A stretch of DNA of 64,000 nucleotides, taken from Eledone cirrhosa. Lineage: Eukaryota. Below the pieces are notes generated by a model, which did no database searches, was not told the DNA's origin, and was given only the letters and a program-made list of their open reading frames with translations. The DNA is taken from NCBI GenBank assembly GCA_964016885.1, contig OZ024742.1, positions 284,642,001 through 284,706,000 of the forward strand. The letters are read 5' to 3'. The translations under genes and the position numbers were made by a program. Each line of letters starts with the position of its first letter. Position 1 is the stretch's first letter. Shown one piece after another: positions 1-33,884 of this stretch.

Positions 1-960
1 CCGAGGTGCTCGACACCATTACTGTCACGTCGTCGGCATAAGCCGACGCCGCTTTGCGCAGTCCCGGTTCTAGGGGGATGCCCTGCAACAGCTCCAATTT
101 CCGCAGTAGTGGCTCTAGAGTCAATATGTACAGAATGGAGGAGAGAGGGCATCCCTGTCGAATGGAACGCGTGATTGCGAACGGCTCCGATAGGTAGCCG
201 TTCACCTTGACCCTCGAGCAGATGCTGGTGTGCATCGCCTCGATCCATCCTCTGAACACGGGACCGAAACCGGCCGCCTTGAGAACCGCTTCCAAGTATC
301 GATGGTCGACCCTATCGAATGCCTTAGACTGATCCAAGTTGATCAGAGCCCCACCGAAGCCGGGTTTACTACCCACCCTCTCTATGATGTATCGCATGAG
401 GTGGAGGTTGTCGTGTATGGACCTGGTCGGGATTGCACACGTTTGCGCTTTCCCTACCAGGTTCTCGACGACAAGCGCTAACCTCGTCGCTAGCACCTTG
501 GCCAAAATCTTTAACTCTGTGTTGAGCAGAGTTATGGGCCTGAAGTTGTTAATTTCGTCCCCCTTGTTCTCGTCTTTCCTGATCAGCGTTACTACGCCCT
601 TGCCTGCAGAACTGGGAATTCTCCCGTTCTGCTGCCAATTGCAGTAGACGGCTTCGAGGACGCCAGAGAACAAGTCCGGCATGCCTATGTAAAATTCGTA
701 GGGTAGACCATCTAGACCGGGTGACTTGCGTTTCCCGCAGCGACCCAGAGCGTCCCGTATCTCAGTGTCCGTGATCGGTCTTTCGCAGAACTCGGCGTCC
801 GTGTTCGAGAGACGCGGCAGGCCGTCGAGGTATGAACTAAAGTCCATTGCCCCGTTTGGCTCACCGTCGTTCTGCTCAAACAGTCGCGCAAAGTGCCGCT
901 GAAAGGCCGCGCACATTTGCTTGGGGTCAAGTAGCACGCGTCCGTTTTGGTCTTTCAAAG
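1..960 (-). mobile_element. L1/Tx1-clade LINE, copy A: 5'-truncated ORF2 (RT region), continues past window start
   Basis: Minus strand encodes RT motifs (KSPGLDGLPYE, FRPITLLNTELKILAK, LDQSKAFDRVDH, RQGCPLS, AYADD). Collinear with but diverged from 2850-3810. Homology stops at 960, at the (GATA)n tail of the next copy. Confidence 0.9.
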
Positions 961-961
961 A

Positions 962-1261
962 GAGATAGATAGATATATTTCTTTATTAGCCACAGGGGCA
1001 CAAAAGAAGGGGACAAATACAAAGGGGGAAGTTTACATACAATAAAAACGTGTAAAATGTTATCACAGATGGAATTTAAAAGTTAGTCGATTTTCCCCAA
1101 TAGAGGGAGACAGTTTATATGGGTAACACAGACCCCCGAAAAAAATGTGCAACCCTCATCTCCAGGAGTACGAAGAGCTTGTACTCCTTTCCTCTCCTCC
1201 TCCTTTTCCTCAACCTACAGGCTGATATAGAGAGAAGGCCCATTCACTCGGGCCATTCTCG
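962..1261 (-). mobile_element. Tx1-type LINE 3'-end fragment, copy B (about 300 bp)
   Basis: End of ORF2, 3'UTR, AATAAA and (TATC)n tail on the minus strand. Appears identical to 7114-7409 (offset 6148). Confidence 0.9.
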
Positions 1262-1504
1262 AGATAGATAGATAGATAGATATATTTCTTTATTTACCAT
1301 AAAGGCATAAAAAGAAGGGACAAATACAAAGGGGGAGTTTACATACAATCGAGTAAAAAGGGTGTAACATGAAAATAATCGAAAATAACCTCAAAAGGGA
1401 GGGAACGTGATGGGGGTTGCACCCCCCCCCCTCCCGAAAAAGTGTGCAATGCTTTGCCCGGGGAGCACATGGAGAAGGTGCTCCCCTCTCCTTTACTTCT
1501 TTAC

Positions 1505-4500
1505 CTACAGGATGGTATACAGAGAAGGCCCATTTACACGAGCCATTCTCGACACTATCACCCACCTTTCATAAAACTGCCTGTGGCCAAGCACCTCTCT
1601 CTCCATTCTTATCCTTCTTCCGAAGTGATATCGGAAGAAGTAGACCAGACTATGGCCAGAGAGGAAGTTGCCTGACCTCAGACCTTTCAATCGTGTCCAC
1701 CAAACAACCTCTTTCAACATGGCTATTACGCACAGAAAAACCGCCTTTGCTTCCTTTGTGAAGAGGGGAGGCGGTTTAATTGTCATCACGGACTCGGCGG
1801 TCAATTGAATCGGCGCCACCCGCGACAGCAGTCGTTCGGCGTAGCCCCACAGATCAGCCACGCCCGGACATTGCACCAATGCGTGCGCAACGGTTTCTTC
1901 GTGACGCACGCATCTAGGGCAAATCTTTTTTGAGGGATCCCTGCCCGGGCGCCCGTGTCTGTAGAGCCTCTCTCGAACGGGTAGAGCCCCTCGGTAGCAC
2001 TACCAGGCCAGTGACTTCTGGAAGTTGTCCATTGGTCCTGGGCCGAAAGTCCTACCGAAAAGGCTGGCCAGTTCGTCTTCTTCCATGTCCAGCGACTCTC
2101 CAAGGGTGTCATCGCCCCTGCTAGCCACCAGCCCTCTATAGAATGATGAGGTGGATTCTCCACCGATGGCCTAGCCCGCTTGCCAGAGAGCCCTGAGCGC
2201 CTGAGCACACTCAGTGTGCCAGTCTTCCAGTTTTCCGGATCTTTGCTTGACCCAGGACTGTAGCTCGGTGAGCGAGACGAGTCTCGGAAAGGCTCGTTTC
2301 ACGAACGGAGCCCACACCGGTTGACCAGTGAGGAATACCTGTAGGTGCCGTAGCCTTAATGCGTGCCTACGCATCATCAACCACGGCATCCCCAGCCCTC
2401 CTTTCGAAGGTTGTTGGCAGCAGATGGATCTTCTCACCATAGGAGGGCGCTTCTTCCAAAGAAATTGGAAGAGCATGCGTTCCATGGTGGTGAGTGTTTC
2501 CTTAGGGCAAGGCACGACAGTCAGGCGGTAGTAAGTGACGGACGCTATGTAAATGTTCGCCACCTCCGCCCGGCCTTTTAGGGACAGCTTACACTTGGCT
2601 CATTTCTGGGTTAGTGCAAACACCTTGTTCGTAACCTCGTTCCAGTTCTTTTCCACCTGGAGGTCCGGTCCAAACCAGACCCCAAGCAACTTTACCGGGC
2701 CCTCCGTCCAGTGTCCGACGACACCGTCGGGAGGCATCGGTCTGCCTCTCCACGTTCCGAGTTGCAGCCCGATGGATTTTTCCCGGTTCAGTTTCGCTCC
2801 TGACAACCTTTCGTAATCCTGCAGTAAGGTACCGATCGCCTCGATCTCCGAGTCGGTCGATACCATTACTGTTACGTCATCGGCGTAAGCCGACACCGCT
2901 TTGCTCAATCCTGGTTCCAGAGGGATACCCTGCAACAACTCCAACTTCCTCAGTAAAGGCTCGAGAGTCAATACGTACAGAAGGGAGGAGAGAGGGCACC
3001 CCTGTCGAATGGATCGTGTGATTTCGAACGGCTTCGAAAGGTAGCCGTTCACCTTGATCCTAGAACAGATGTGGTTGCTATGTAAGGCAGTGATCCAGCC
3101 TCTGAAAACAGGACCGAACCCAGCCGCCGCTAGCACCGCATCCAGGTAACCATGGTCGACCCTATCGAAGGCCTTAGACTGATCCAAGTTGATCAGGGCC
3201 CCACCGAAGCCGGGTTTGTTGCCAACCCTCTCTATGATGTATCGCATGAGGTGGAGGTTATCGTGAATGGACCTGGATGGGATATCACATGTCTGCGCAT
3301 CTCCCACCAGGCCACCCACGACAAGCGCCAACCTCTTTGCTAACACCTTGGCCAAAATCTTTAACTCTGTGTTTAGCAGGGTTATGGGCCGAAAATTATT
3401 TATACTATCTCCCTTGTTCTCGTCCTTCCTCACCAGCGAGACTACGCCCTTGGCTACAGAACAAGGAATTCTCCCGTTCTGCTGCCAATTGCAGTAGACC
3501 GCTTCGAGGAGTTCGGAGAAGAAGACCGGCATTGCTAAATAAAGTTCGTAAGGTATACCATCGAGACCTGGAGATTTGCGTCTGCTGCATTGGCTCAGCG
3601 CATCTCCGATCTCATCAGCCGAGATTGGTCCCTCGCAGGACTCTGCCTCTTCGCTCGAGAGACGCGGCAGGCCGTCGAGGTATGGACCGAAATCCACGCC
3701 CCCGCCCGGACCCTCGCCTCCCCCGAACAATCGGGCAAAGTGCCTTTGAAAGGCCTCGCACATCTGCTTAGGCTCCCGGATCACCCGTCCATCTTCGTCT
3801 TGCAACGACCGGATGGTGGATCGATTTCCACTCTTAGCTTCTGTCACGCGGGCCCAGCCAACGGCTTTGGCCCCCTCATTACCTAGAGCACGTATTTTAC
3901 TTCGAATGACGCAGCCTTCGTGCTTTGCATCGAAAAACTGGTTCAAGGCCGTCCTCGATGCCAGCACTCTGGCCACATCTTCGCTCTTGATTGCCTCTTC
4001 TAATTTACCTGTTAATTCTTTCTCGTTTCTATTCCTATCGGCAGCTAACATCTTGCTATAACTTATTGATTCTGTTCTAATCTCTCTTTTGAGAGATGCC
4101 CACCATCGGTTGTTGACGATTGCACCCGTCAACCTCTCCTTAACTAATCTGCTAATCCAGTTTCTGTAAGTTTCTTTTGCCGGTAAAGACAAATTAAGTT
4201 TCCAGTAACCGGGACCCTGTTTATGTGTTTTCTCGAGATTGACTACGCAGGTCACTAATTTGTGATCCGTGTAGCCAACCGTGCGCATTTCTGGACAGCT
4301 TAATATGTCCCTATCCTTACTTCTAACTAAGAATCTATCTAAGTACGATCTAGATTGACCACTGTGGTTTCTCCAAGTCCAGGTAGGCACAGTTGGAAAA
4401 TCTAGTCGATATCTATCGACCAAGTTAAAACGGTTGAGTAACCCCTTGAGGCTGTTACACGCCCCTCTATTAGGACATGCTCCTGCATAGTCCCAACGTG

Positions 4501-4947
4501 CATCTAGGATGTCATTCCAATCCCCCGCTAGAAGCAGGGAACGCGACGTTCCCAGAAAAGTCTCCAAACGCTGGAAGAAGTCGGGCCGTTCAGCTCCGAA
4601 AGGGGAGTAGACGGCGACCAGTCTCAAGGCCGCACCTTCACTACTGCCAACGTCTAGCACCAACAAACGACCCTCTGGGTCCGAGTGCACAACCTGTACG
4701 GCAAGACCCAGGTGTTTTTGCAGCAGTACGACAACCCCACCCCCACCTCCAGGTTGACAGAGATCTCTCTGTCATGCACCTCAAAGTCATCGAAGGTAGG
4801 GGCCAGCTGCCGCACGACGCTGATCCGAGTCTCACAGATAACCATTACATTTATACCACATGACCTGAGGTCATTTAGAAGCTTTGCTTGCTTCCAAGTT
4901 GAGCCCAGGCCACGTGCATTCAAACATCCTACTCTTAACACATCCAT
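1505..4947 (-). pseudogene. ORF2: APE endonuclease, reverse transcriptase and zinc finger; frameshifted
   Basis: MDVLRVGCLNARGL (APE start), GDWN, SYLDRFLV, TDHKLV, GPGYWKLN, RQGCPLS, YADD, GGLGMP, EETVAHALVQCP. Split across ORFs 4654-4947, 2600-4690, 2171-2563 and 1505-1909. Confidence 0.92.
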
Positions 4948-4980
4948 GTGGGCGGCAAAGCCAAAGGAGAGTGTAGAGAC

Positions 4981-6920
4981 CTACCTTTCCACTTCCCGGG
5001 GTTCGGGTCGCACGACTTCCATGGGGTCGGGGGTGTTGGGTGAAGGGGTGTCTTGTGGTGGTGTGGGGTCGTCAGTGTGTGGTGGGGTTGGGGTGTTTGG
5101 AGTTGTGTTGGGGAAGGGAAGGGGAGAGGGAAAGCTTTTTAGTAGGACGCGGTTTATGGGTTTGACAGAGGGTGGTCCTACGTCCTCCTTAAAATCCTTT
5201 TTTAGTTTTTGGTAGAGGTTCATTGGGATCTTTATTAATTTTAAATGTGGGTAGTTTTCTGAAGAAACAAAGTTTACACCTTCGGTTTGTACCGAAGGAT
5301 TATTGTATATGAGTTCATTTAATTTATTATTGTTTCTGTTGATGTAAGTATAGTGTAATGTCTTTTTTTCGGGTGGTGTGAGTGTTTCGAAGAGGGGAGG
5401 GGCAGGTTTGGTTTTGTTTGTTGCTGGAGGGGTGTTTTCTGTTTTGTTGGATTGTGTTGAGATTTGGGTGGGGGTTGTTTGGCCTTGTGTGTTTTGCACA
5501 TGTTTTCTTTTTTTCCTTTTAATCTGTCTGAAGGACTCCGTTTCTTCCTCCGAATTCGTTGGGTTATCTTCAGTGTTGGAGGGAAGATGTATGTTTGCTG
5601 GTAATGTTTCCGTGTTGGTTTTCTTTGTGGGGGAGATGGATGTCACTATGTTAGACTGTGTTGTGTGTTGTGTCTGCGGTGGTTGTGTTGTTTTATTGAG
5701 TGAGGGGTTGGGTGGGCCTGTATTTTGTTTTGGGGTAATGTGTTGTGACTGTTTGTGTTGTGGTGGTGGTGTAGTTTTACTGAGGGACGGGTTGGGTGGG
5801 ACTGAGTTTTGTTGTTTGTTTATCTGTTGTGGTGGTGGTGGTGGAGCTGGTGTTGGTAGCAGGGTTTTCTTTTTGTTGAGTTGGGGACAAGCGGCCTTCA
5901 GGTGCCCTCTGCCTGCACAGATATGACAGGACGGCCTTCTCCCCTCCACGCTAATGTTTATATACCCGTGGCCCTCTAATAGGATTCTGTCGGGTATTTG
6001 GGCGATGCGTTCAGGCTTCATTTGCACTACCAGCTCTATACCTGTTCCACTGAACGCATTGCCTGTGGTTTTCCCAATGGAAATCACGTTGTCATTCACT
6101 AGATCGATGAAGCCAGCTATGAGCCAGCAGTAGTCCACATCTGGCATCATTGCATCCAGCCATATGCGTTGAGTTCTTTTACCCATATAAGATGGATAAA
6201 AGGTAAAATTTTTTGAACGAATCGGTGACAAAGCACATTCTTTTGCCGCCGATTCGTTCTTCATAATAATTGCTAGGCTTCCATACAGTCTGTCTTTTCT
6301 TATGAAAGTGGTTTCATTAAGTACTTCTGTGAGTACTGTTTTGATATCTGCCTGAGTTGGTTGTTCAGGTTATTTTGAAGTGTTGTTGATGGTGCGGAAC
6401 ACGACCGTTCGACTTTCAATGTCTTTGGTGAGTTCTTGAGGCATTTTTACCGATAAAATACCATTCTCTCCTTCACTTATGTATTGTTTGGCGTCTGTGA
6501 TTCTTCGTGCCACATCTGAAATATTTTCAGGTATATATGTCAAAGATTTCTTTGTTGTTTGTGCAAATGAAATCTTGTTGACTCTGTCGTCTGCTTTGCT
6601 TTCTGTTATGGTGTTATTTTCAAATGTTATTTTTGTGTTTGTTGTGTCTTTGTTTGTGGTATTAGTATTGTCATGTAATTTTTCAAATTTTTTTTTTTTT
6701 CGTTGTTGGAATCCATGTCCAGATTTGTGTTTTCGTCATTTTTCTCCGCCGATTCGTCTGTTTTTATTTTATTTTTTCCTTCCTTCTCTATGACGTTAGT
6801 TGGGAAGGAAGGGGGGACTAAAGCGTGCGAGCTTACAACTCTTACCGCTGTCCCCCCACCACTATTTTCGTTCGCTTCGTTTAACATTTCTGTCAGACGA
6901 TTGAAATTTTTTTGCCACAA
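4981..6920 (-). pseudogene. ORF1 (gag-like nucleic-acid binding protein), disrupted at the N-terminus
   Basis: ORF 4981-6264 has a CX2CX4HX4C knuckle (CHICAGRGHLKAAC) and a Pro/Thr-rich tail, and ends 33 nt before the ORF2 ATG. The upstream part is broken near the poly-T at about 6690 and a stop near 6370. Start position is uncertain. Confidence 0.8.
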
Positions 6921-7113
6921 AATTTTTTAAAACAGGTTTTTCACCTCTAGGAGGGGTAAAGATGAGCTGACCCACCGCCTGACAGTTCAGACGGGGGGTC
7001 AAGCTACACAATAGTATCAAAATTAAATTTGAACTCACAAAATTTCCGCAATAAATTTGAACAAAACTTCTGCGCTAAGTGAATTACATCCACACTGTAG
7101 AACAGACGACAGC

Positions 7114-8007
7114 TAGATAGATATATTTCTTTATTAGCCACAGGGGCACAAAAGAAGGGGACAAATACAAAGGGGGAAGTTTACATACAATAAAAACGTG
7201 TAAAATGTTATCACAGATGGAATTTAAAAGTTAGTCGATTTTCCCCAATAGAGGGAGACAGTTTATATGGGTAACACAGACCCCCGAAAAAAATGTGCAA
7301 CCCTCATCTCCAGGAGTACGAAGAGCTTGTACTCCTTTCCTCTCCTCCTCCTTTTCCTCAACCTACAGGCTGATATAGAGAGAAGGCCCATTCACTCGGG
7401 CCATTCTCGCCACTTTCACCCACCTTTCATAAAACTTGCTGGGGTACAGCACCTCTCTCTCCATCCTGATTCTTCTTCCAAAGTGGTATTTGAAAAAAAG
7501 AATCAGTTGTTGGCCGGAGAGAAAGGTGTCTGACCTCAGCCCTTTCAACCTTGTCCACCATACAACCTCTTTCGCCATAGCTATCACACAAAGGAAAACC
7601 GCCTCTCCTTCGTTTTTGAAGGAGGGTGGCGGTTTGATCATGACAATGGACTCGGTGGTCAACTGGATTGGTCCCACCCGCGACAATAGTCGTTCCACAT
7701 AGCCCCACAGGTCAGTGACGCCCGGGCAGTGTATGAATGCGTGCGCGACGGTTTCTTCGTCTCGCACGCACCTCGGACAGATCTTTTTTGCAGGGTCCCT
7801 GCCCGGGCGCCCATGTCTGTAGAGCTTGTCTCGAACTGGTAGAGCTCCTCGGTAGCACTGCCAGGCCAGGGACTTTTGGAAGTTGTCCATCGGTCCCGGG
7901 CGGAAGGTCCTACCGAACAGACTGGCCAGTTCATCTTCCTCCACGCCTAGAGTTTCACCGAGCGCGTCGTCGCACTTGCTGCGGACCAACCCTCTATAGA
8001 ATGACGA
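7114..8007 (-). mobile_element. Tx1-type LINE 3' portion, copy D (5'-truncated)
   Basis: ORF 7363-8028 encodes the ORF2 C-terminus (CPRCVRDEETVAHAFIHCP), homologous to 1505-2150. Same tail as B and C. Truncated at the junction with the 310-bp repeat. Confidence 0.9.
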
Positions 8008-8170
8008 ATATTCTATGTCTATATTCACATATATATCGCTATTTCAGAGCATTTATTCCAATTTCTAATTTCTGCCGGACCGGCAACCGCTCTTTCAAAC
8101 CAGTTCCTGTACACAGCTAAGTATTCTATAAGTCTCTAGCTGTGTCATTCTCGATAAAAGCACTGGATAT

Positions 8171-8213
8171 GTAGTCCTGATGATTTCTAACGAGAATGAA
8201 ACGCGTAGATTAC
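8171..8213 (+). ncRNA. Type I hammerhead ribozyme (family 1, copy 1)
   Basis: Stem I GTAGTC/GATTAC, CTGATGA (8177-8183), stem II TTCT-AACG-AGAA, GAAA (8198-8201), CGCG, then TA; predicted GUA cleavage after 8207. Stem I is extended by a perfect 16-bp helix 8147-8162/8220-8235. Confidence 0.88.
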
Positions 8214-8480
8214 TTCCCTTGCTTTTATCGAGAATCTAATTGTAATACGTGACGTATTCTATTCTATAGCGATTAGGTCTTCAAAATGTTTATTATAAAC
8301 ATACAGAATATTTTCGAATATTCTATGTCTATATTCACATATATATCGCTATTTCAGAGCATTTATTCCAATTTCTAATTTCTGCCGGACCGGCAACCGC
8401 TCTTTCAAACCAGTTCCTGTACACAGCTAAGTATTCTATAAGTCTCTAGCTGTGTCATTCTCGATAAAAGCACTGGATAT

Positions 8481-8523
8481 GTAGTCCTGATGATTTCTAA
8501 CGAGAATGAAACGCGTAGATTAC
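8481..8523 (+). ncRNA. Type I hammerhead ribozyme (family 1, copy 2)
   Basis: Identical to 8171-8213, offset +310. Confidence 0.88.
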
Positions 8524-8790
8524 TTCCCTTGCTTTTATCGAGAATCTAATTGTAATACGTGACGTATTCTATTCTATAGCGATTAGGTCTTCAAAATGTT
8601 TATTATAAACATACAGAATATTTTCGAATATTCTATGTCTATATTCACATATATATCGCTATTTCAGAGCATTTATTCCAATTTCTAATTTCTGCCGGAC
8701 CGGCAACCGCTCTTTCAAACCAGTTCCTGTGCACAGCTAAGTATTCTATAAGTCTCTAGCTGTGTCATTCTCGATAAAAGCACTGGATAT

Positions 8791-8833
8791 GTAGTCCTGA
8801 TGATTTCTAACGAGAATGAAACGCGTAGATTAC
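8791..8833 (+). ncRNA. Type I hammerhead ribozyme (family 1, copy 3)
   Basis: Identical to 8171-8213, offset +620. Confidence 0.88.
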
Positions 8834-9145
8834 TTCCCTTGCTTTTATCGAGAATCTAATTGTAATACGTGACGTATTCTATTCTATAGCGATTAGGTCT
8901 TCAAAATGTTTATTATAAACATACAGAATATTTTCGAATATTCTATGTCTATATTCACATATATATCGCTATTTCAGAGCATTTATTCCAATTTATATAT
9001 ATATATATATATATGTATATGTAGGAGGTGAGTTTTATTGTAGTACAATAAAGCAATGCAGATATCGGATAAGAAGCACTCTAAAGTATGTGGAACTGGA
9101 GTATGCATAATATAAGATCAAAAGATGGTTAAAGGAGTTCAATAT

Positions 9146-9214
9146 ATTTTATTATGCGCATTTCAAAAACAAACATCATCAAACAATAATATTTGTGTTT
9201 TCATCAGATAAAAC
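9146..9214 (-). ncRNA. Type I hammerhead ribozyme (family 2, inverted arm copy)
   Basis: Reverse complement of 12634-12702; TCATCAG at 9201-9207. Confidence 0.85.
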
Positions 9215-9977
9215 AGGAGAACATGATATGAAGGCTAAAAAAAAAAAACACTTGTTGATAGTGCAGTTTTAAATCAACATATGAAAAGTGGTTTTAGATT
9301 GATGTGTGATATTGGGAAAAATATTTTATTTAGAGAGGGGGGGAGAGAAAAGGATGAAAAGGGAAGGAGATGAGAGGGAGAGATGGGTGATAGAGAGAAA
9401 GAGATAGTTTTTATAACTGAGAGGAGATATATTTTATATAGAGGGGTTGAAAACCGTTGGAAGATACTGTATAAATTAAAAATTTTGAAAATTAACGAAG
9501 GGAGGATATGTGCGAGGAAAAAATATATTATATTTAGGGAGGGGTGGGGGTGGAAAGGATGAAAAAAAGGGGAGGAGATGAGAGTGAAGGTGGAAAGGGA
9601 GAGATGGGTGATAGAGAGAAAGAGATAGTTTTTATAACTGAGAAAAAGATATAGAGAGGTTGGGAACCGTTGGAAGATAATGTATAAATTAAAGGAATTT
9701 GAAAATTAACGAAGGGAAATTATGTATGGAGATAGAGAGAAAAAAATAACGAAGGGAAATTATGTATGGAGATAGAGAGAAAAAAATAATAATTGTGGGT
9801 TAATATTCTAACGTCAAAAGAAGAAATGTAGGAATTTTAAAATTAGCAAAGAGAAAAAGTTTATGTGTAGAAGGATTTGGGAAAAATAATGTGAAGTTAA
9901 AGTTTTTATATTGAATTCATATGTATTAATAATGAGTTCGTTGATGGGGAGAAAAAAATAATAATAAATTAAGGATG

Positions 9978-11401
9978 CATCCGATTCATCCCAATTGACT
10001 GATTTAATTGGTATCTTCATTTTGAACTCTTTGAGTCGGAAAATTCCTCAACTTCGCGGTGGAATTTATCGTGACGATGGACTCTTTACTATCCTAAATT
10101 GCAATACAGTTAAACTTAATATTATTAAGAACAATATACGTAATCTCTTTAACCAACATAACCTAAAAATTGAATTTGATAATAGTACCAAACTAGCTAA
10201 TTTCTTGGATGTATCTCTTAATCTTGACACTGGCCTATATTACCCTTACCATAAAAACAATGAGAATCTTAATTATGTTAACTTTAAATCTAACCATCCT
10301 ACCAATATCAAGAATGCTATAGTTAATAATATTGGAAATAGAATATCTAACATATCTTCTAATAAAAACATCTTTGATGCTAACGCCAATTACTATAATA
10401 ACGCACTTTCTAAAGCCGGCTATCCAGATAAAATCAAATATAATAAAGAAACAAATTCTAGGAAAACTTACAGTAGAATATTTAATCATAACCATTCCAA
10501 TAATTTTAATAAAAGACCTAGATACAAAAACATAATCTGGTATAATGCTCCTTTCTCCATCTCTATTAATAACAATATTCCTAAATTATTTTTTAGTGCC
10601 TTAAATAAATGCTTCCCTCCCTACCATATCTATAGTAAAATATTTAACAAACACACCATCAAATTTTCGTATTCTACATCCTCCAATATTTCCAACATCA
10701 TCTCTAAACACAACAACAAAATAATAAATACTAAATCTCTTCCTTCCAATATTGAATCTCATAATAACAATAATAGTACTCCTGACGTCATTGTAAACCC
10801 TAGGCTAACTTCTGTAAACCCAAATGCAACGTCAAACACAACTTCGCTAAATGTTCATAATCCAACTCTAAATCAAGAAACTATTATTCCTATTATTCCT
10901 ATCGCAAACAACTTCTCCAATCCAATTCCTTCTATAGATAACACTAGATCACTCATTAATAATCTCTCTAATTGCAACTGCCGCATTAAAAATAAATGTC
11001 CTCTCAACAACCATTGCCTCGATAAAAACTTAATTTATGAATGTAAAATTATAACTAGCACCAATTCCTTCACCTATTTTGGCTCCACTTCCACCTCTTT
11101 TAAAGCTCGTCTCTATAATCATCATTCATCTTTCAAATACAAACTTAAAAGAACTAACACTGCTCTCTCAGAACTCATATGGTCCTTAAAAGACAAAAAC
11201 ATTAAATATAACATCTTTTGGAAAAAGATTTCTTCTGCATCCTCGTACTTGAACAGCTCTCTATCTAAAATCTGTAATCTCTGCCTAAATGAAAAATTTA
11301 CCATTATTTCTAACCTAGAATCCATAATAAATAGACGCTCGGATTTGTTTTCCATCTGCCTGCATAAATTCCATAGAACTTTTCACAAAGTATACAGTTA
11401 A
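9978..11401 (+). CDS. PLE polyprotein C-terminal part: RT (YRDD), Cys-rich linker and GIY-YIG endonuclease; 5'-truncated but uninterrupted
   Basis: SDSSQLTDLIG, GGIYRDDGL, NFLDVSL, YYPYHK, IIWYNAPFS, CNCRIKNKCPLNNHC, LIYECK...YFGST..FKARLYNHH, CNLCLNEK, CLH. Confidence 0.9.
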
Positions 11402-11454
11402 TATTCAATTCTTTATCAATTTAGAATCTTTTCTCAAAGGCACATATACATACA

Positions 11455-11895
11455 CCTCTTTAAAATATACCCATCTACCTTACTTTAAAGGGCATTATAC
11501 ACTCTATAATACTCGTTTACTCATTACCCTCATCCTATCTTCTCGTAAAACAATAACATTTGTTTTTGACATTTTGAATATTCATCCGCAATCATTATTA
11601 TTTTTTTCCCTCTATCATAAATCTTTTTAATCTCAATTTCATCCTTAATTTATTATTATATATTTTTTTTTAATATATACTCATATATTCTTTAAAATAT
11701 ACCCATCTACCTTACTTTAAAGGGCATTATACACTCTATAATACCCGTTTACTCATCACCCTCATTATATCTCCTCGTAAAACAATAACATTTGTTTTTG
11801 ACATTTTGAGTATTCATCCGCAATCATTATTATTTTTTCTCTCTATCATAAATCTTTTTAATCTCAATTTCATCCTTAATTTATTATTATTTTTT
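11455..11895 (+). repeat. About 232-bp tandem duplication in the PLE-A 3'UTR
   Basis: TAAAATATACCCATCTACCTTACTTTAAAGGG occurs at 11461 and 11693. Confidence 0.85.
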
Positions 11896-12633
11896 TCTCC
11901 CCATCAACGAACTCATTATTAATACATATGAATTCAATATAAAAACTTTAACTTCACATTATTTTTCCCAAATCCTTCTACACATAAACTTTTTCTCTTT
12001 GCTAATTTTAAAACTCCTACATTTCTTCTTTTGACGTTAGAATATTCACCCACAATTATTATTTTTTTCTCTCTATCTCCATACATAATTTCCCTTCGTT
12101 ATTTTTTTCTCTCTATCTCCATACATAATTTCCCTTCGTTAATTTTCAAATTCCTTTAATTTATACATTATCTTCCAACGGTTCCCAACCTCTCTATATC
12201 TTTTTCTCAGTTATAAAAACTATCTCTTTCTCTCTATCACCCATCTCTCCCTTTCCACCTTCACTCTCATCTCCTCCCCTTTTTTTCATCCTTTCCACCC
12301 CCACCCCTCCCTAAATATAATATATTTTTTCCTCGCACATATCCTCCCTTCGTTAATTTTCAAAATTTTTAATTTATACAGTATCTTCCAACGGTTTTCA
12401 ACCCCTCTATATAAAATATATCTCCTCTCAGTTATAAAAACTATCTCTTTCTCTCTATCACCCATCTCTCCCTCTCATCTCCTTCCCTTTTCATCCTTTT
12501 CTCTCCCCCCCTCTCTAAATAAAATATTTTTCCCAATATCACACATCAATCTAAAACCACTTTTCATATGTTGATTTAAAACTGCACTATCAACAAGTGT
12601 TTTTTTTTTTTAGCCTTCATATCATGTTCTCCT

Positions 12634-12702
12634 GTTTTATCTGATGAAAACACAAATATTATTGTTTGATGATGTTTGTTTTTGAAATGCGCATAATAAA
12701 AT
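12634..12702 (+). ncRNA. Type I hammerhead ribozyme (family 2) near the PLE-A 3' end
   Basis: GTTTTAT, CTGATGA (12641-12647), about 16-bp stem II, GAAA (12684-12687), TGCGCA, TA, ATAAAAT. Predicted AUA cleavage after 12695. Confidence 0.87.
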
Positions 12703-12766
12703 ATATTGAACTCCTTTAACCATCTTTTGATCTTATATTATATATATGTATATATATATATAGAGA

Positions 12767-13459
12767 GAGAGAATTAGTATATCTACCAACATATGTATAC
12801 AGATGTATACCCATGCTAGCAAATATATATGTTATGTCTTAGTACCTTTGTGGTTCTATGCAGGGGGATGCAGAACAATTATATGAAAGACGTAAAATAA
12901 GAAAATTTTAAAATTAAAAATTAACTTACTTACTAAAATTTTCACTCCAACTAATTAGTTTCTGTAAGGGAATAAATATAGTTGCGTAATGTAACTATAG
13001 AGAAGTCCTTACGTCATCAGGGAGTCTATTCTCAGCTAAGTTCCCAGGCAATGCGCGGACACTAGGAACCCATATAAAAATAATAATTCAGTGGATGGAA
13101 TAAAATTAGCGGGGACTAAATTCCAGGGCACTGAAAAAATTCACTGCCTACTTGGTCAGTGGCAAATTCTAAAGAATCTCAATCACGTGACACTGAGGTT
13201 AATCAGTGAGGAGTGGGGTGGTATTATGACAAGAGCCTAACTACTACCATGAACCATAGCAGTAAATTTTGGCAAGTTTCGCTCAACAAATAATTTGGAG
13301 ATAAATATAGAGAATTAGTATATCTACCAACATATGTATGCAGATGTATACCCATGCTAGCAAATATATATGTTATGTCTTAGCATCCCCCTGCATAGAA
13401 CCACAAAGGTACTAAGACATAACATATATATTTGCTAGCATGGGTATACATCTGTATAC
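12767..13459 (-). mobile_element. Non-coding HHR-containing element: 541-bp unit, partial second unit and a 77-bp inverted segment
   Basis: 12771-12842 is directly repeated at 13312-13383. 13383-13459 is the reverse complement of 12795-12871. Minus-strand 3' end abuts (TC)n(TA)n. Confidence 0.8.
12944..13025 (-). ncRNA. Type I hammerhead ribozyme (family 3)
   Basis: Minus strand: ACTCC, CTGATGA, stem II GTAAGG...CCTTAC with an inner TATAGTT/AACTATA helix, GAAA, palindromic CTAATTAG, TT, GGAGT. Predicted GUU site. Confidence 0.83.
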
Positions 13460-13718
13460 CCATCTGTATACTAGCTTAATTAAAACATCGAGTGAGTGGG
13501 AAAGCGATCAAAGATTTGTGTGTGTGTAAGTTCGCTCCCGAGCGCTACTGGTAATATGTAACCCAGAACATGTTACACTGTGTGGTCGTCGGTGACTAAA
13601 CCGGCAACCCCACCAAGCTTGCTTATTGAGAAGAGTGGGTATTGGACAACCTGCGGGACGAAAAGCAAAACCCGTTGAAGGGCGGAAGAACTCATGTGAA
13701 TCAACGGCCACCCATTAG

Positions 13719-13721
<3 letters not shown>

Positions 13722-13806
<85 letters not shown>
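13722..13806. repeat. (TA)n microsatellite, left flank of PLE-B
   Basis: Direct observation. Confidence 0.95.
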
Positions 13807-13810
<4 letters not shown>

Positions 13811-13895
13811 AAAATTGAACAGGAACAAAACAGAGAGGCAGTACAAACAAAGGTTTATTAATTTCACGCTCTTGAGAGTGGGGTGGTGGTGGGGA

Positions 13896-13930
13896 ACGAC
13901 GTTTCGGGCATAAGCCCTTCTTCAGGTGAA
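13896..13930 (-). ncRNA. Minimal type I hammerhead ribozyme (family 4)
   Basis: Minus strand CTGAAGA-A-GGGC-TTAT-GCCC-GAAA-CG-TC. Palindromic ACGT stem III, GUC site. Adjacent stem I is only about 2 bp. Confidence 0.75.
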
Positions 13931-14845
13931 AAGTGTGTGGGAAGAGAGTTCAAAGGGTGTGTAGGGGAGTGGTGGAGAGACATATAGCAAAAAGGGGGTG
14001 AGAGGAAACGGTGCAAATGAAATTAAAAATAAAGGCATGATCAAAATAAAATTAAAATGGGGTAAAACAGGTGGTGGAAGGGTGTGGGGCGTGTAGGGGT
14101 GGTGGCGGGTGGAGTGGGGAGAGGGAGATGGGGTGTCCGAGCGGGGAGGGCTGAAGGTGGTGTGTGTGTGTAGGTGTACGTGTGTGTGTGTGTGTGTGTA
14201 TGTGAAAGCAAGGGTTGGGGGAAGAACGGGGTTGCATGTTCTGGAAGAGGTGTGTGTGGGGTGGGGTGTAGGTCGGAGTGTGTGTGCGTGTGGGGGTAGA
14301 GGGGTGGGGGGAGAGGATTCCGGAGGTTGAATGTGTAAATATGTGGTGGTACGCACGTGTGTGGGTGGTGTTTATGCGTGTTGTGGATGTAGGTGGCGTG
14401 TGGGAAAAAAAATGTTTTGGGGTGTGTGTGGGGTGAGTCATAAAGGTAATTCCGTAAAAAGATGTGGTGGAATGCTGAGTAAAATCCTGGGATGCGGTGG
14501 ATTCTCGGGATCAAGGTTCACATATGTGTAATCCGTGAAGAGATTGGTCGGAAGAGGGGAAATGTGGGGTGGGCGCGCAACAGGAAGTGGTCAGAGGGTC
14601 AAGGCAGGAGGAGTGTTGTGTATATGTGTGTGCGGGGAGGTGGTCAGAGGGAATAGCAGCAGTAGGGTAGAATGGTAAGTGAAGGTGTGTTGTGTGTCTG
14701 TGTGTGCGGGGAGGTAGTCAGAGGCATAGCAGCAGTAGGGTAGAATGGTAAGTGAAGGTGTGTCAGTGTGTGCGGTGGACAGGGGAGAGGATGGGTAGGT
14801 GTGAAAGTTGGAGTGAGGTGAGGGGGGGAGGGGGGTGGTCGAAGG

Positions 14846-17603
14846 CTAAAGGAATAAGGGTGGGGAGTTCAGGCCGGGGGGAGTGTGGGTCTGTAAGATG
14901 AAGATGGTTCGTTGTTCGACTCTTAGGAGATTGGCGGGTGTTCCGTGGCATTGGAGTAGGTCACAGACTGTGAGATGGTGTGCGGAATGTCCAGGGGCAC
15001 CAAAGTGGCGGGCGATGGGGGAACTACCACCGAGACGAATATCCCGGAGGTGCTCAGTAAATCTGTCCGCCAGGCGACGTCCAGTCTGTCCGACGCAAGT
15101 CGCGCTGCACTCCGTGCAGCGAAGTCCGTAGACTAGGTTGGAGGAGGTGCAGCGGAAGGCATGCCGGACAGAGAGAGAGTGGCCGTTGGGACCCTGGAAG
15201 GTGGTGGTGTTGGTGATGTGGGGACAGGTGTTGCAGCGGGGCCTAGAACAGGGAAAGGAACCGGGGGGGGGGCGTGAGTTGGGAGGTAGGGAGCTGTGGA
15301 CGAGGAGGGTGCGGAGATTGCGTGCGCGTTTGAAGGAGGGGAGTGGTGAGGCTGGGAAGATGTGGGAGGTGGAGGGGTCGGACTGGAGGCGTCGGAAGAG
15401 GCGGAGGATGGTGCGGTGGAGGGGTATGGTGGAGGGGTGGTAGGTGATGGGGAAGGGGAGACGTTGGGTGGGTGTGCGGTGGCGTGGGGTGAGGGTGATG
15501 GAGCGGTGGACAGCACGGGCGCGGGTGAGAGCGGTGTGGACGAGAGAGGGGGGGTAACCTCTGCGGATGAAATGGCTGACTAGGGAAAGGGCCTGGGACT
15601 CAAAGTCGGCATCTCGGCTACAGAGGCGGCGGATCCTGAGGAGTTGGGAGTAGGGAATAGAGTGTTTAGTGTGTGTGGGGTGGGAAGAGGTGAAGTCGAG
15701 GTAGGAGTGGGAGTCGGTGGGAGGGGTCGAAGGCGACGGAGATGTCTAAGAAGTGGACGTGGGTGGTGGAGATAGAGGTGGTGAAGTGGAGGGAGGGGTG
15801 GAAGGAGCAGAAGAAGGAGAGAAAGGAGTCGAGCTGTTCTCGGGTGAGGGTCGTGGCTCCGATACAGTCGTCGATGTAACGACCGTACAGTTCGGGCGTG
15901 GGGCCGGTGTACTGGGCAAAGATTTGGGCCTCAATATGGCCAACAAAAAGGTTGACATAGTTTGGGCCCATTATTGTACCCATGGCTACCCCCGTGACCT
16001 GTTGGTAAAACTCACCCGAGAAGGAGAAACAGTTGAGGGTGAGGACCAGTTCGGCGAGGCGAAGGAGGGTGGGGGTGGAGGGAATGGGGGAGGGGCGAAG
16101 GTCGAGGTAGTGTTTGAGGGCGCGTAGGCCGTCGGCGTGGGGGATGACGGTATAGAGGGACTTGATGTCTAGGGTGAAGAGGAAGGGCTGTGGGCCGGGT
16201 GGGTAGGTGAAGGAGTCGAAAAGGCGCAGGGCGTGGTTGGTGTCGGAGATGTGGGAGGGGAGGGTGGTGACAAGGGGGGCGAGGATGGAGTCGAGAAAGG
16301 CGGAGATGAGTTCGGTGGGGCAGTTGCAAACGGAGACGATGGGGCGGCCGGGGTTGTCGGGTTTGTGGAGTTTGGGGAGGAAGTAGATGGTGGGGGTGAG
16401 GAGGGTGCGAACGATGAGGTGGGAAGCGGTGGGGGGAGGAGGGAGGAGGAGACAAGGTGTTGGATGGTGGAGGAAACTTGTTGTTGGTAGAGGGGTGTGG
16501 GATCGGAGGGTAGAGGGCGGTAGAAGAGGAGCTGCCTGAGGGCTTCGGCCGTGTAGAGGTTCGCGCACCACACCACCACGGCGCCTCCCTTGTCCGCCGG
16601 TTTGATGACGATGTCCTCTCGGCTACGGAGGGAGCGGAGAGCGAGGAGTTCGCCCCGTGAGATGTTACTCCGTTTGGAACAGTGGCGGAAGTCGAAACGA
16701 TTTACGGCGCTACGGCTGGCATCGACGAACGTGTCCAGGGTGCTAAATTGCCCTGGGGCCGGCGTCCAAGAAGATGGTCGTCGGCCCAGGGCGAGAAACG
16801 GGTCTGGGGCGTTCGGAGCCGGTGGCGTTCGGCCGAAATGTGCCTGTAGCTTCGTGCGTCGCACGAATCGCTCGACTTCCGTTCGGGTGCGGAACTCGTC
16901 GCTGTGCGGAGTGTGGGGTATGAAGCGAAGGCCTCTACTAAGAAGTGAGCGCTCAGGTGCGGAGAGGGGGAGGTCAGGGGGTATGGTGACAACAAGTGGT
17001 GGGGTTTGGGGGTGTGAGGGGGAAGGGAGGGTGTGGTGAGGGGTGAGATGGAGGGTGGAGATTGGGTAGGGGTGTGTGTCGAGGGAGGGGTGGAAAGTGG
17101 TGGGCTCATAGGGATGGGCGGGTGGTGGTGGATGGGGGTGGTTGGGAGGAGTGAGTGTAGCTTGCGGGCTTTGGTGGAGGTGAGGAAGAAGAGGTCGTGG
17201 TTGAGGTTTTGGATGAATAGGAGGATGGCTTGGGCGAGGAGGGGGTGGCAGGTGGAGTTAAGGAAGAGGAGGGTGGGGGTCAGTTGGTGGTCAAGTTTGC
17301 GGAGGGTGGAACGGGAGGCGTGGATGGAGTTGCGCATTAGGAGGCGTGAGGATCGGGTGAGGATACGTTGCGTGGAGGGGGAAGCGGCGGGGGAAGTGTG
17401 GAAGGTTAGACGGAAGCCGAGGGGGATAAGGTGGAGGCGGAGGCAGTGGCTGAGGAAATGGATGTGGCTGGAGTGCCGGGTTTTGGCGAAGAGAAGGTAG
17501 GAGAGTTGAAGGGCAGAGGGGAGATAGCAGGGTAGGAGGAGGGGGTGAGAAAAAGTTTGAGGCTAGTGTGTAGTTGGTGGAGAAAGGATCTCAGGCTGGG
17601 CAT
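14846..17603 (-). pseudogene. PLE-B ORF: RT, CX4CX2C linker and GIY-YIG endonuclease; several frameshifts
   Basis: IVIKPADKGGAVVV, YFLPKLHKPDNPGRPIVS, DIKSLYT, GVAMGT, RYIDD, FLDI, then PCSRPRCNTC, NLVYGLRC..C...CVGQTGRRLADRFTEH, PPGLN; stop at 14846-14848. Confidence 0.9.
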
Positions 17604-17658
17604 GGTGGGCGTTGGGTGAAAGCAGGGGGAGGGATGAGAAAGCAGGTGTGTGAAGCGG

Positions 17659-17699
<41 letters not shown>

Positions 17700-17800
17700 T
17701 TAAGGTAAATATTGATGCAATTCAATTCAAGCACTGAACGTACTTATTCCACATAGGAAAAGCGAAATAGTTTCAGATGTTCCAGTCCTTTAATAATAAT

Positions 17801-17874
17801 GCTGTGATACATATTTCAATGGTGACAGTGGCCACACTGTTCCGTGCGCCAGTGCCGCGACATCGTCAGACAGC
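17801..17874 (-). ncRNA. Type I hammerhead-like motif (family 5, minus copy)
   Basis: Reverse complement of 18007-18080. Confidence 0.6.
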
Positions 17875-18006
17875 TTGTTACATAATAAGGTTATGGAATT
17901 GGTACTCACAAGGGAACGGACGAAGAACCCAAGAGCACACACTTCGTCCGTTCCCATGTCGATTCAATTTAGATTGCCTCGGAAACATAACCTTATTATG
18001 TAACAA

Positions 18007-18080
18007 GCTGTCTGACGATGTCGCGGCACTGGCGCACGGAACAGTGTGGCCACTTTCGCCATTGAAATATGTATCACAGC
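18007..18080 (+). ncRNA. Type I hammerhead-like motif (family 5)
   Basis: GCTGT, CTGACGA, 45-nt irregular stem II, GAAA (18064-18067), TATGTA, TC, ACAGC. AUC site. Stem II pairing is imperfect. Confidence 0.62.
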
Positions 18081-18135
18081 ATTATTATTAAAGGACTGGA
18101 ACATCTGAAACTACTTTGCTTTTCCTTATTCTCTC

Positions 18136-20358: not shown

Positions 20359-20404
<46 letters not shown>

Positions 20405-20436
20405 TAGTTATGTAATAAACAACATAAGGCAATTAT

Positions 20437-20494
20437 TCCATTTACCAGTGGTTTCTTAAAAGCAAAAAAATTTTCTTTCAATCATCAGAATGAA
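20437..20494 (-). ncRNA. Type I hammerhead ribozyme (family 6, minus copy)
   Basis: Reverse complement of 20583-20640. Confidence 0.82.
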
Positions 20495-20582
20495 AAAATG
20501 CTGGTCTGTTTATTGAATTTGGATTTTAAAAACAAAAATTTTTGTTTTTAAAATCCAAATTTAATAAACAGACCAGCATTTT

Positions 20583-20640
20583 TTCATTCTGATGATTGAA
20601 AGAAAATTTTTTTGCTTTTAAGAAACCACTGGTAAATGGA
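20583..20640 (+). ncRNA. Type I hammerhead ribozyme (family 6)
   Basis: TTCATT, CTGATGA (20589-20595), TTGAAAG...CTTTTAA, GAAA (20622-20625), CCA-C-TGG, TA, AATGGA. Predicted GUA cleavage after 20634. Confidence 0.85.
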
Positions 20641-20797
20641 ATAATTGCCTTATGTTGTTTATTACATAACTATTAAGCTCTGTTACCTACATAGAGCACT
20701 CTTTTTTCCTGGACTTTTCCGACGGAATTACTTCATTTATACAGCTCCAACCGGGATTGATTGAAGCATATTCTATATTACATATACGATTGGCACT

Positions 20798-28459: not shown

Positions 28460-28600
28460 TATCATCTCATTTCTACAGCTGAGTAAACTGGAGTAACGTG
28501 AAATAAAGTGTCTTGCTCAACACATCACCCGATCCGAGAATTGAACTCACAACCTTTAGATTTCAAGCCCAATGCTCTAACTACTAAGCCATGCGCCTTC
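28460..28600 (-). mobile_element. tRNA-derived SINE 5' part
   Basis: Minus strand reads GGCGCATGGCTTAGTAGTTAGAGCATTGGGC...GTGAGTTCAATTCTCGG, an A-box/B-box-like tRNA head. Related to 22825-23070. Confidence 0.65.
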
Positions 28601-29393
28601 ACATGGAATTGGTGTCAGTTATAACTGACACCAATTCCTTTACCTATTTTGGCTCCACTTCCACCTCCTTTAAAGCTCGTCTTTATAACCATCATTCGTC
28701 TTTTAAATACAAACTTAAAAGAACCAACACGGCTCTCTCAGAACTCATATGGTCCTTGAAAGACAAAAATATTAAATATAGCATCTTTTGGAAAAAGGTT
28801 TCTATTAGTTCTCTATCCAAGATTTGTAATCTCTGTCTAAATGAAAAATTTACCATTATATCTAATTTAGATTCTATAATAAATAGACGCACTGACTTGT
28901 TTTCTCTCTGCTTGCATAAATTCCACAAAACATTCCACAAAGTATACAGCTAATATCCAAAACTTTATCAATTTAGAATCTTTTTCTCAAAGGCACATAT
29001 ATATACTTCTTTAAAAATATACCCATCTTTCTACCTTATTTCAAAGTTATTTATTATACATTATATAATACTTGTTACTCATTCTATATCACTCCTATTT
29101 ATCACTTCCCTTTCTTCATTTTCCCTTTCTTCTCTTTTTCTTTTAATGTTTAACCCCTAATCTGTACCTTTTCTCACTGTTGCCTAACATAGAAACAATT
29201 ATTACACAATACAATACATTCTTACTTTATATTACCTTGCAAAAATCCTTCGTAAACATAAACATTTTTTGACGTTAGATTATTCATCCTCAATTCATTA
29301 TTTTTTTTCTCCCTTTCATCTAACTTATTCATGCTCATCTCACAATATATCCTTACTTACATTACTTGTTGTTCTTTTTAATAATACATATCA

Positions 29394-29550
29394 ACATTTT
29401 CTTTCCATCGCACATATTATTAGACCCTTAAATATTATTCTTAATACATATTAACATTTTCTTTCTATCGCACATATTATTAAACCCTTAAATATTATTC
29501 TTAATACATATTAACATTTTCTTTTCATCGCACATATTATTAAACCCTTC
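29394..29550 (+). repeat. 60-bp tandem repeat (about 2.6 copies) within the PLE 3'UTR
   Basis: CTTT..ATCGCACATATTAT at 29401, 29461 and 29521. Confidence 0.85.
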
Positions 29551-29907
29551 AATATACAAACCTTAACTTTACATTATTTTTTCCTTCGTTAATTTTCAAA
29601 TTCTTTTAATTTATACATTATCTTCCAACGGTTTTTCAACCTCTCTATGTAAAACAATATATTTCTCTCAGTTATAAAAGCTATCTCTCTCTCTCTATCA
29701 GCCATCTCTCCTCCTATCTCATCCTTCCTCATTATACTCCTCCCTCTCCACTTTTTACTCTCATCTCCTCCTCTTTTTCATCCCCTCCCCCCCTTAAAAA
29801 ATATATATTTTTCCCAATATCACACATCAATCTAAAACTACTTTTCATATGTTGATTTAAAACTGCACTATCCACAAGTGTTTTTTAACCTTCATATCAT
29901 GTCTTCC

Positions 29908-29978
29908 TATTTTATCTGATGAAAACACAAATATTATTGCATGATGATATTTGTTTTTGAAATGCGCATAATAAAATA
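29908..29978 (+). ncRNA. Type I hammerhead ribozyme (family 2, third copy)
   Basis: TATTTTAT, CTGATGA (29916-29922), stem II, GAAA (29959-29962), TGCGCA, TA, ATAAAATA. Confidence 0.87.
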
Positions 29979-30006
29979 CATGGAACTCTTTTAACCATCT
30001 TTTGTT

Positions 30007-30156
<150 letters not shown>

Positions 30157-32916: not shown

Positions 32917-33884
32917 GATTCCCAGCCTGTGTTTCACAGATCCCTGGATTCCCAGCCTGTGTTTCACAAGTCCCTGAATTCCCAGCCTGTGTTTCACAGA
33001 TCCCTGGATTCCCAGCCTGTGTTTCACAGATCCCTGGATTTCCAGCCTGTGTTTCACAGATCCCTGGATTCCCAGACTGTGTTTCACGGATCCCTGAATT
33101 CCCAGCCTGTGTTTCACAGATCCCTGGATTCCCAGCCTGTGTTTCACAAGTCCCTGAATTCCCAGCCTGTGTTTCACAAGTACCTGGATTCCCAGCCTTT
33201 GTTTCACAGATCCCTGGATTCCCAGCCTGTATTTCACAGATCCCTGGATTTCCAGCCTGTGTTTCACAGATCCCTGGATTCCCAGACTGTGTTTCACGGA
33301 TCCCTGAATTCCCAGCCTGTGTTTCACAGATCCCTGGATTCCCAGCCTGTGTTTCACAAGTCCCTGGATTCCCAGCCTGTGTTTCACAAGTACCTGGATT
33401 CCCAGCCTTTGTTTCACAGATCCCTGGATTCCCAGCCTGTATTTCACAAGTCCCTGGATTCCCAGCCTGTTTCACAAGTCCCTGGATTCCCAGCCTGTGT
33501 TTCACGGATCCCTGAATTCCCAGCCTGTGTTTCACAGATCCCTGGATTCCCAGCCTGTGTTTCACAAGTCCCTGGATTCCCAGCCTGTGTTTCACAAGTA
33601 CCTGGATTCCCAGCCTTTGTTTCACAGATCCCTGGATTCCCAGCCTGTATTTCACAAGTCCCTGGATTCCCAGCCTATTTCACAAGTCCCTGGATTCCCA
33701 GCCTGTGTTTCACAGATCCCTGGATTCCCAGCCTGTGTTTCACAGATCCCTGAATTCCCAGCCTGTGTTTCACAAGTCCCTGGATTTCCCTGGATTCCCA
33801 GCCTGTGTTTCACAGATCCCTGGATTCCCAGCCTTTGTTTCACAGGTCCCTGGATTCCCAGACTGTGTTTCACGGATCCCTGGA
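32917..33884. repeat. 30-bp minisatellite (about 32 copies), unit GATTCCCAGCCTGTGTTTCACAGATCCCTG
   Basis: Direct observation. Variant pattern recurs every 210 bp. Confidence 0.97.

Follow-up and report, generated by a model that had tools for sequence, protein, structure and literature searches.

Organisation of the insertion

The window (the whole 64,000-nt stretch of DNA analysed) contains a minus-strand insertion, set in a (TA)n(GA)n microsatellite, that consists of a 541-nt unit with a hammerhead ribozyme (HHR), a partial copy of the 3′ end of that unit, and an inverted arm. Its parts are as follows.

12768–13471, minus: whole insertion (junction repeat, inverted arm, 75-bp partial copy and 541-nt unit)
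12768–13308, minus: non-coding 541-nt unit, a putative monomer (541 period, no ORF above 66 aa, fold z-scores)
12768–12842, minus: redundant 3′-terminal 75 bp (sequence alignment)
13309–13383, minus: pLTR-like partial copy of the 3′ end, upstream of the unit (74/75 identical)
13383–13459, plus: inverted arm, copied from 12795–12871 (77/77 identical)
13460–13471, plus: 5′ junction, one extra base and an 11-nt repeat of the end of the arm
12768–12794, minus: putative 27-nt tail, found at the primary 3′ end and missing from the inverted arm
12778–12827, minus: terminal hairpin of 22 bp (pair probability 0.97–1.0)
12742–12767, no strand: (TA)n(GA)n target microsatellite, common to the unit and the neighbouring element PLE-A

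Along the minus strand, the junction (13471–13460) is followed by the arm (13459–13383), the partial copy (13383–13309) and the unit (13308–12768), and then by (GA)n(TA)n. The direct repeat (12768–12842 and 13309–13383) has a single mismatch (12799/13340) and a period of 541, or 1.139 monomers. The original prediction had given the same period and about 1.14 monomers, and its figure of 72 bp for the redundancy was 3 bp short. It had also placed a 77-bp inverted segment at 13383, and this matches the reverse complement of 12795–12871 throughout. The segment begins 27 nt inward of the 3′ end; 48 nt of it coincide with the direct copy, and a further 29 nt are unique sequence. The longest exact repeats expected by chance are 14 bp (direct) and 20 bp (inverted; 200 shuffles). 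Only one mismatch separates the three copies, suggesting that the insertion is young.

The 27-nt offset between the two 3′ ends forms a putative tail at the unit, slightly short for the 30–40 bp of PLE tails and with a boundary blurred by the (GA)/(TA) run. At the opposite end, the 11-nt templated repeat (13461–13471), absent from the earlier description, prolongs the insertion to 13471 and may reflect a stuttered initiation or a template switch. A 6-bp palindrome marks the end of the arm, and TA-like sequence lies at the 13308 junction. Two putative starts of reverse transcription can be placed from these ends, one at 12795 in the 3′ arm of the 22-bp hairpin and the other at 12768, just past the hairpin base. 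No target-site duplication longer than 6 bp was found for the insertion, all shorter matches lying inside TA-rich sequence. The miRNA-like Rfam matches at 13338–13457 were below the cut-off and correspond to the fold-back created by the inversion.

The unit is non-coding, as had been proposed: the longest stop-to-stop frame is 66 aa and the longest Met-initiated frame 43 aa, even when it is read as a circle. An RT and GIY-YIG ORF was absent from the insertion by ORF scan and by tblastn, in which 25 query PLE proteins or ORF pieces gave zero matches to the unit, and tblastn with PLE proteins found no coding trace in the 280 nt upstream of the ribozyme. The GC content is below 50%, and there is neither an LTR/PBS/PPT layout nor a tRNA. 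Active non-LTR retrozymes are recognised by at least two complete HHRs in tandem, and the insertion has 1.14 units and one HHR. The marks of PLE-type insertion are present, namely an upstream partial tandem (pLTR), an inverted 5′-truncated copy and a (TA)n target.

Ribozyme and RNA fold

The predicted ribozyme and the RNA features related to it are listed below.

12944–13025, minus: type I hammerhead ribozyme with a GUU site, cleavage predicted at 12949/12948 (descriptor scan)
12963–13013, minus: stem II region of 51 nt, an unpaired C and A flanking a G-C-closed 6-bp helix, an internal loop and a second helix
12949–12960, minus: perfect 12-nt palindrome spanning stem III (duplex −10.8 kcal/mol; double hammerhead possible)
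13200–13215, minus: anti-ribozyme strand, 14-bp pairing with 12957–12943 across the cleavage site (−16.5 kcal/mol)

The minus-strand HHR that the original prediction had placed at 12944–13025 was recovered by the descriptor scan, which found such a motif in dinucleotide-shuffled 541-mers (both strands) in 1 of 20,000 cases with loose settings and in 0 of 20,000 with strict ones. Its identification rests on the descriptor, because Rfam gave no hammerhead match at the unit or elsewhere in 1–35000, the other local hammerheads included, at gathering and E-value thresholds. Stem I has 5 bp (13025–13021 paired with 12948–12944) and the core is intact, with CUGAUGA from 13020 and GAAA at 12962–12959. 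The cleavage triplet is GUU with N17 at 12949, which places the predicted cut exactly where it had been proposed.

Stem II comprises a 6-bp helix, a 7 × 7 internal loop and a helix of 7–8 bp (pair probabilities 0.94–0.98), beginning with an unpaired C and ending with an unpaired A around the G-C pair. Its length and two helices are as originally described, but it is not a rarity, since stem II regions of 36 and 45 nt occur nearby and one of 54 nt in a published PLE; those of the local neighbour hammerheads measure 13, 14, 26, 36 and 45 nt. Across 25 Hydra-clade families stem II regions reach at most 26 nt, GUU cleavage occurs in 10 of the 25 and a mismatch at the base of stem II in 15 (counted from PMC8557442 File S2). 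An extra base after A9 together with a G10.1–C11.1 pair is described as typical for PLE hammerheads (PMC4209133). The C·A at the stem II base and the GUU were considered as marks of a dead ribozyme and rejected as such, since precedents exist for both (PMC4209133, PMC8557442 File S2).

Folding of two copies gave −41.2 kcal/mol for a double hammerhead against −29.2 kcal/mol for two single ones, and the double geometry is the co-fold minimum. In the monomeric hammerhead, stem III forms with a probability of 0.04–0.28, and in nascent folds the probability of stem I is close to 0. As the palindromic stem III favours the double form, the predicted motif looks made for tandem transcripts.

The unit as a whole is predicted to be strongly folded and 60% paired (z −5.6 linear and −5.0 circular, against −1.7 on the opposite strand). 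The ribozyme strand beats shuffles in all four blocks (z −2.2 to −4.3) and the opposite strand in none (−1.5 to +0.2). Among the controls, a local 310-mer retrozyme gave z −4.1 with 60% paired, the 3′ end of PLE-B +0.1, and two short local PLE ends +0.7 and −0.6; in the background, 1 of 14 values was as low as −3.15 (10 shuffles each). The last 541 nt of PLE-A gave z −3.7 against −0.1 on the other strand, so that its 1.3-kb 3′ UTR folds strand-specifically and coding PLEs can have long structured non-coding 3′ ends.

The best long-range duplex among all 16-mers of the unit is the one covering the cleavage site. It was equalled in 6 of 2,000 shuffles, a post hoc statistic, as the duplex was spotted after folding. 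Its pairing probability is about 0.55, and it is missing from shorter nascent folds; the active ribozyme fold costs 3.6 kcal/mol in the full unit. By this model, the unit can lock its own cleavage site. A circle gains no support from pairing across its would-be junction, where only about 1 bp forms. In the 5′ block of the unit (13093–13208, minus), six occurrences of a 6-base motif and its complement form a cluster of short hairpins.

Neighbouring elements and searches for relatives

The principal elements around the insertion are listed here.

9102–12741, plus: PLE-A, a 5′-truncated Hydra-clade PLE that carries an HHR of its own (36-nt stem II) and an inverted arm of 871–876 bp
9968–11401, plus: ORF remnant of PLE-A (RT end, Asn-rich insert, GIY-YIG)
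13807–17660, minus: PLE-B, a near full-length Neptune-like PLE (RT, CX4CxxC linker, broken frames)
8005–8994, plus: hammerhead array, 310 bp × 3.2, 99.7% identical, with a (TA)n end

In PLE-A, CxxC/CxH motifs flank a CxCX5C linker, a set that fits the Hydra clade (PMC8557442 section 11), and a homolog search with its ORF returned 20 PLE-like proteins. Its inverted arms differ at 2 of 871 sites, and duplications occur within its 3′ UTR of 1.3 kb. At 28619–30013, its 3′ part is present again as a diverged copy with the same end point in (TA)n. PLE-B is flanked by (TA)n on both sides and has a minimal hammerhead at 13925. The 310-bp array, 4 kb from the unit, is a standard non-LTR retrozyme with its 5′ side joined to a LINE fragment; each of its units has one minimal type I hammerhead (GUA, U·U at the stem II base), and it ends 167 nt after the last cleavage site, against 181 nt in the 541-nt unit. 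Two short head-to-head elements (17755–18126 and 20404–20673) carry a hammerhead-like motif in each arm, with stems II of 45 and 26 nt. One arm of each ends at (TA)n, and the first shares the (TC)n(TA)n 3′ junction of the unit.

Three other HHR elements in the window likewise have an inverted arm ending at or near their own 3′ end. Seven hammerhead-bearing elements, the unit included, have their 3′ ends at (TA)n, occupying 6 of the 13 such tracts in 1–35000. A microsatellite shared by the unit and PLE-A is therefore expected, and because (TA)n is identical on both strands, the unit, given this tract, had an even chance of facing PLE-A. PLE-A stops at about 12741, 26 bp short of 12768, in agreement with the roughly 25 bp of (TA)(GA) noted earlier. 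The tail-to-tail layout in one microsatellite thus stands, but as a positional link and not as kinship.

Similarity of the unit to seven local elements was not detected by nhmmer or blastn-short, the longest blastn-short match to PLE-A being 13 bp; PLE-A, its second copy, PLE-B and the three other local HHR elements all lacked similarity to it. Nor did its 3′ end resemble those of the two coding PLE families of the window. Self-BLAST found no second copy in 1–35000, and 34749–63997 is satellite. Searches of plasmids and phages (blastn) and an exact 25-base scan of prokaryotic genomes gave 0 matches to the unit, as expected for animal DNA; a bacterial promoter scan, which is not applicable to such DNA, was at chance level.

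To the right of the unit, a SINE-like piece (13472–13724, plus) has several hairpins and motifs like degenerate A and B boxes (near 13490 and 13529, respectively), and ends in the (TA)n where PLE-B also ends; ARAGORN found no tRNA in it. A partial tRNA-like match at the Rfam threshold (28534–28591, minus) is probably a SINE head. The left end of the window (1–8007) holds a LINE with AP endonuclease and RT (2600–4771, minus) and duplicated fragments at 1–961, 1267–2149 and 7108–8007. A 30-bp satellite (32917–33884) precedes a 21-bp satellite of about 1,390 copies with 91% matches (34749–63997).

Origin and affinities of the unit

The locus is best explained, with a probability of roughly 0.6, as a recent 1.14-mer insertion of a non-autonomous PLE-derived ribozyme element, that is, a non-LTR retrozyme with a 541-nt monomer. 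In the partial tandems described for PLEs, the full copy comes after a truncated one; an inverted 5′ copy and a tail of 30–40 bp are often present, and insertion is biased to (TA)n (PMC8557442), and the inverted copy may overlap the direct copy (PMC3846280). The partial tandem, overlapping inverted 5′ copy, putative tail and (TA)n target found here match these published insertions, bearing out the PLE-type integration originally proposed. Since the full-length unit follows the partial copy in PLE tandems, the 541 nt would be the whole element, and since the whole is non-coding, it would be a non-autonomous unit, probably copied from a circle or a tandem RNA.

By this mechanism, a tandem source array elsewhere in the genome would be transcribed, and adjacent hammerheads, paired by way of the palindromic stem III, would cleave at GUU. 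The resulting monomer would then be ligated into a circle (by RtcB in published cases) or left oligomeric. A PLE RT/GIY-YIG protein would cut (TA)n DNA and prime on the RNA immediately beyond the terminal hairpin (12768), so that the first cDNA copies 541 nt and a further 75 nt beyond the start, giving 616 nt, a 1.14-mer. The other target end would prime at 12795, 27 nt further in, stutter over 11 nt and copy 77 nt to form the inverted arm, the two cDNAs meeting and joining at 13383. Purified PLE protein is reported to cut and extend both strands, with two adjacent starts in a stem-loop defining the tail; in vitro it primed without homology, and cleavage was not needed (PMC11167929).

Support for the retrozyme reading comes from the missing ORF, strand-specific folding in 4/4 blocks, the cleavage-site duplex and the double-hammerhead co-fold, as well as from the nearby 310-bp array with its like (TA)n end, and the published unit sizes and common monomers. 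Against it stand the single copy, with no array, in the 35 kb searched, the ~1 bp of pairing across the circle junction, the structured 3′ UTR of PLE-A, a background z of −3.15 in 1/14 and the post hoc nature of the lock statistic. The weak stems III and I of the monomer, priming in vitro without homology or cleavage, and 8 of 9 predicted Xenopus retrozymes that did not cleave also count against it.

The main alternative, less probable, is an isolated pLTR: a longer coding PLE would have left only its 3′ end of 541 nt after 5′ truncation, and the 541 period would be accidental. The first cDNA would then have halted at an AT-rich spot, primed on the 3′ end of a second RNA (75 nt) and then joined the inverted arm. 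Heavy 5′ truncation of PLEs is known (PMC8557442; Li et al. 2026) and solo pLTRs have been described (PMC3846280); two other short head-to-head HHR ends occur in the window (17755–18126 and 20404–20673). The TA-like 13308 junction is as a re-priming site would be, the GUU (10/25) and stem II base mismatch (15/25) recall the pLTR motifs of the Hydra clade, and PLE-A shows that a structured 3′ UTR can reach 1.3 kb. However, the 280 nt upstream of the ribozyme carry no coding trace, and the structure reaches the 5′ block and connects it with the cleavage site; the two short local ends show no structure of this kind (z +0.7 and −0.6). The unit also lacks similarity to PLE-A, its second copy, PLE-B and the three other local HHR elements. 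The original alternatives, a retrozyme-like unit or an isolated pLTR, were thus the right frame, and the first is favoured, but one copy does not separate them. Likewise, the terminal redundancy, taken originally to suggest a circular or tandem template, is no proof of it, since a re-primed truncated cDNA gives an equal pattern and junction pairing is ~1 bp; the suggestion is kept within the retrozyme reading.

It is improbable that a solo ribozyme fragment later gained both extra copies at the DNA level, through replication template switching or end-joining at a quasi-palindromic hairpin. The arm does end on a 6-bp palindrome next to an 11-nt templated repeat, and such junction repeats resemble templated repair insertions. 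However, both extra copies derive from the 3′ end of the element, 541 bp away, and the same inverted arm at three other HHR elements in the window is the standard PLE layout (PMC8557442, PMC3846280). That the unit is part of PLE-A, through co-insertion or descent, or that the 75 bp are a target-site duplication, is very improbable: the 26-bp spacing, facing 3′ ends and youth of both (2/871 differences in the PLE-A arms) would fit the former, but nhmmer found no match, blastn-short reached 13 bp, both ends of PLE-A are taken up by its own sequence and 6/13 (TA)n tracts abut HHR-element 3′ ends, while the inverted arm crosses the repeat boundary and carries 29 nt beyond it, making the 75 bp part of the element and ruling out a duplication.

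The copy is most likely young and probably a dead end, because with one ribozyme, and at best one cut per transcript, it could not release a monomer on either of the two main readings. Judged from its sequence, it would behave as a retrozyme monomer: it lacks the two ribozymes of an active retrozyme and the ORF of an autonomous PLE, and bears the marks of PLE-type insertion. Neither its size nor its monomer state is new, since retrozyme units of 51–972 bp, frequent monomers and kinship with pLTRs are described by Li, Clavereau and Pollet 2026 (bioRxiv 10.64898/2026.07.22.740005), who report cleavage in only one of 9 dimers tested. Precedents also exist for GUU, the stem II mismatch and long stems II. 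The one aspect that may be unreported is the combination of inverted arms and tails on a retrozyme insertion, of which no description was found in a literature search that mostly covered papers outside subscription. At somewhat less than even odds, the unit represents a 541-nt retrozyme family in which the circle locks its own hammerhead by an internal antisense strand, with a two-helix stem II, a full PLE signature and both reverse transcription starts at one terminal hairpin.

Such a self-locking circle would be of the viroid and plant style, unusual in animals: self-blocking is described as the usual state of the hammerhead in plant LTR retrozymes and viroids, and among animals only for some mussel circles (Cervera and de la Pena 2020, PMC7229834). 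If the family is real, it would provide junction-level evidence that PLE enzymes mobilise retrozymes, which in the published accounts is backed by co-occurrence and phylogeny only; the enzyme that moves animal retrozymes and the role of the circle as template are still argued there from co-occurrence (PMC7229834; Li et al. 2026). The unit would also offer a minimal template, ready for use in PLE assays in vitro, and with its partial tandem, inverted arm and tail it predicts exact priming sites, 12768 and 12795. The copy is chiefly useful because its ends record the mode of insertion. If the unit is a mere truncated PLE end, it is one among millions of such fragments and of little importance.

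Like metazoan non-LTR retrozymes as described, the unit is non-coding with GC below 50%, has one type I HHR with a short palindromic helix III, a self-paired fold and a length within 51–972 bp, co-occurs with PLEs and is found as a monomer copy (PMC7229834; Li et al. 2026). It differs in being 1.14 units and not an array, in exceeding the 150–450 bp given in PMC7229834, in its helix II, which has 51 nt against about 4 bp, and in its self-blocking strand (PMC7229834), and in its inverted arm and tail, which are not among the features described for them in these sources (PMC7229834; Li et al. 2026).

With the pLTR ends of EN+ PLEs, especially of the Hydra clade, it shares the partial tandem, the overlapping inverted 5′ copy, the (TA)n target and, putatively, the tail (PMC8557442, PMC3846280, PMC11167929), the target preference being described for Hydra, Neptune and Naiad PLEs (PMC8557442). 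The lack of a clear target-site duplication, the HHR 181 nt from the 3′ end, GUU and the stem II base mismatch also agree with their described features. Unlike them, it has no RT/GIY-YIG ORF, its putative tail is 27 nt instead of 30–40, and its stem II is 51 nt against at most 26 in 25 Hydra families. Non-autonomous Chlamys PLEs such as MRC1 are similarly non-coding PLE derivatives with pLTRs and head-to-tail copies, but most Chlamys are described as lacking canonical HHRs and as having a 3′ end like that of an autonomous partner, whereas no partner of the unit was found in the window (PMC8557442). Hammerheads with similar features in the tables of PMC8557442 File S2, compared unaligned, are those of PLE-X1_sMoe, with a 54-nt stem II region and a long re-pairing loop, and PLE-X1_cBra, with an unpaired C and A around a G-C-closed stem II, although both belong to plant or algal EN-minus coding PLEs.
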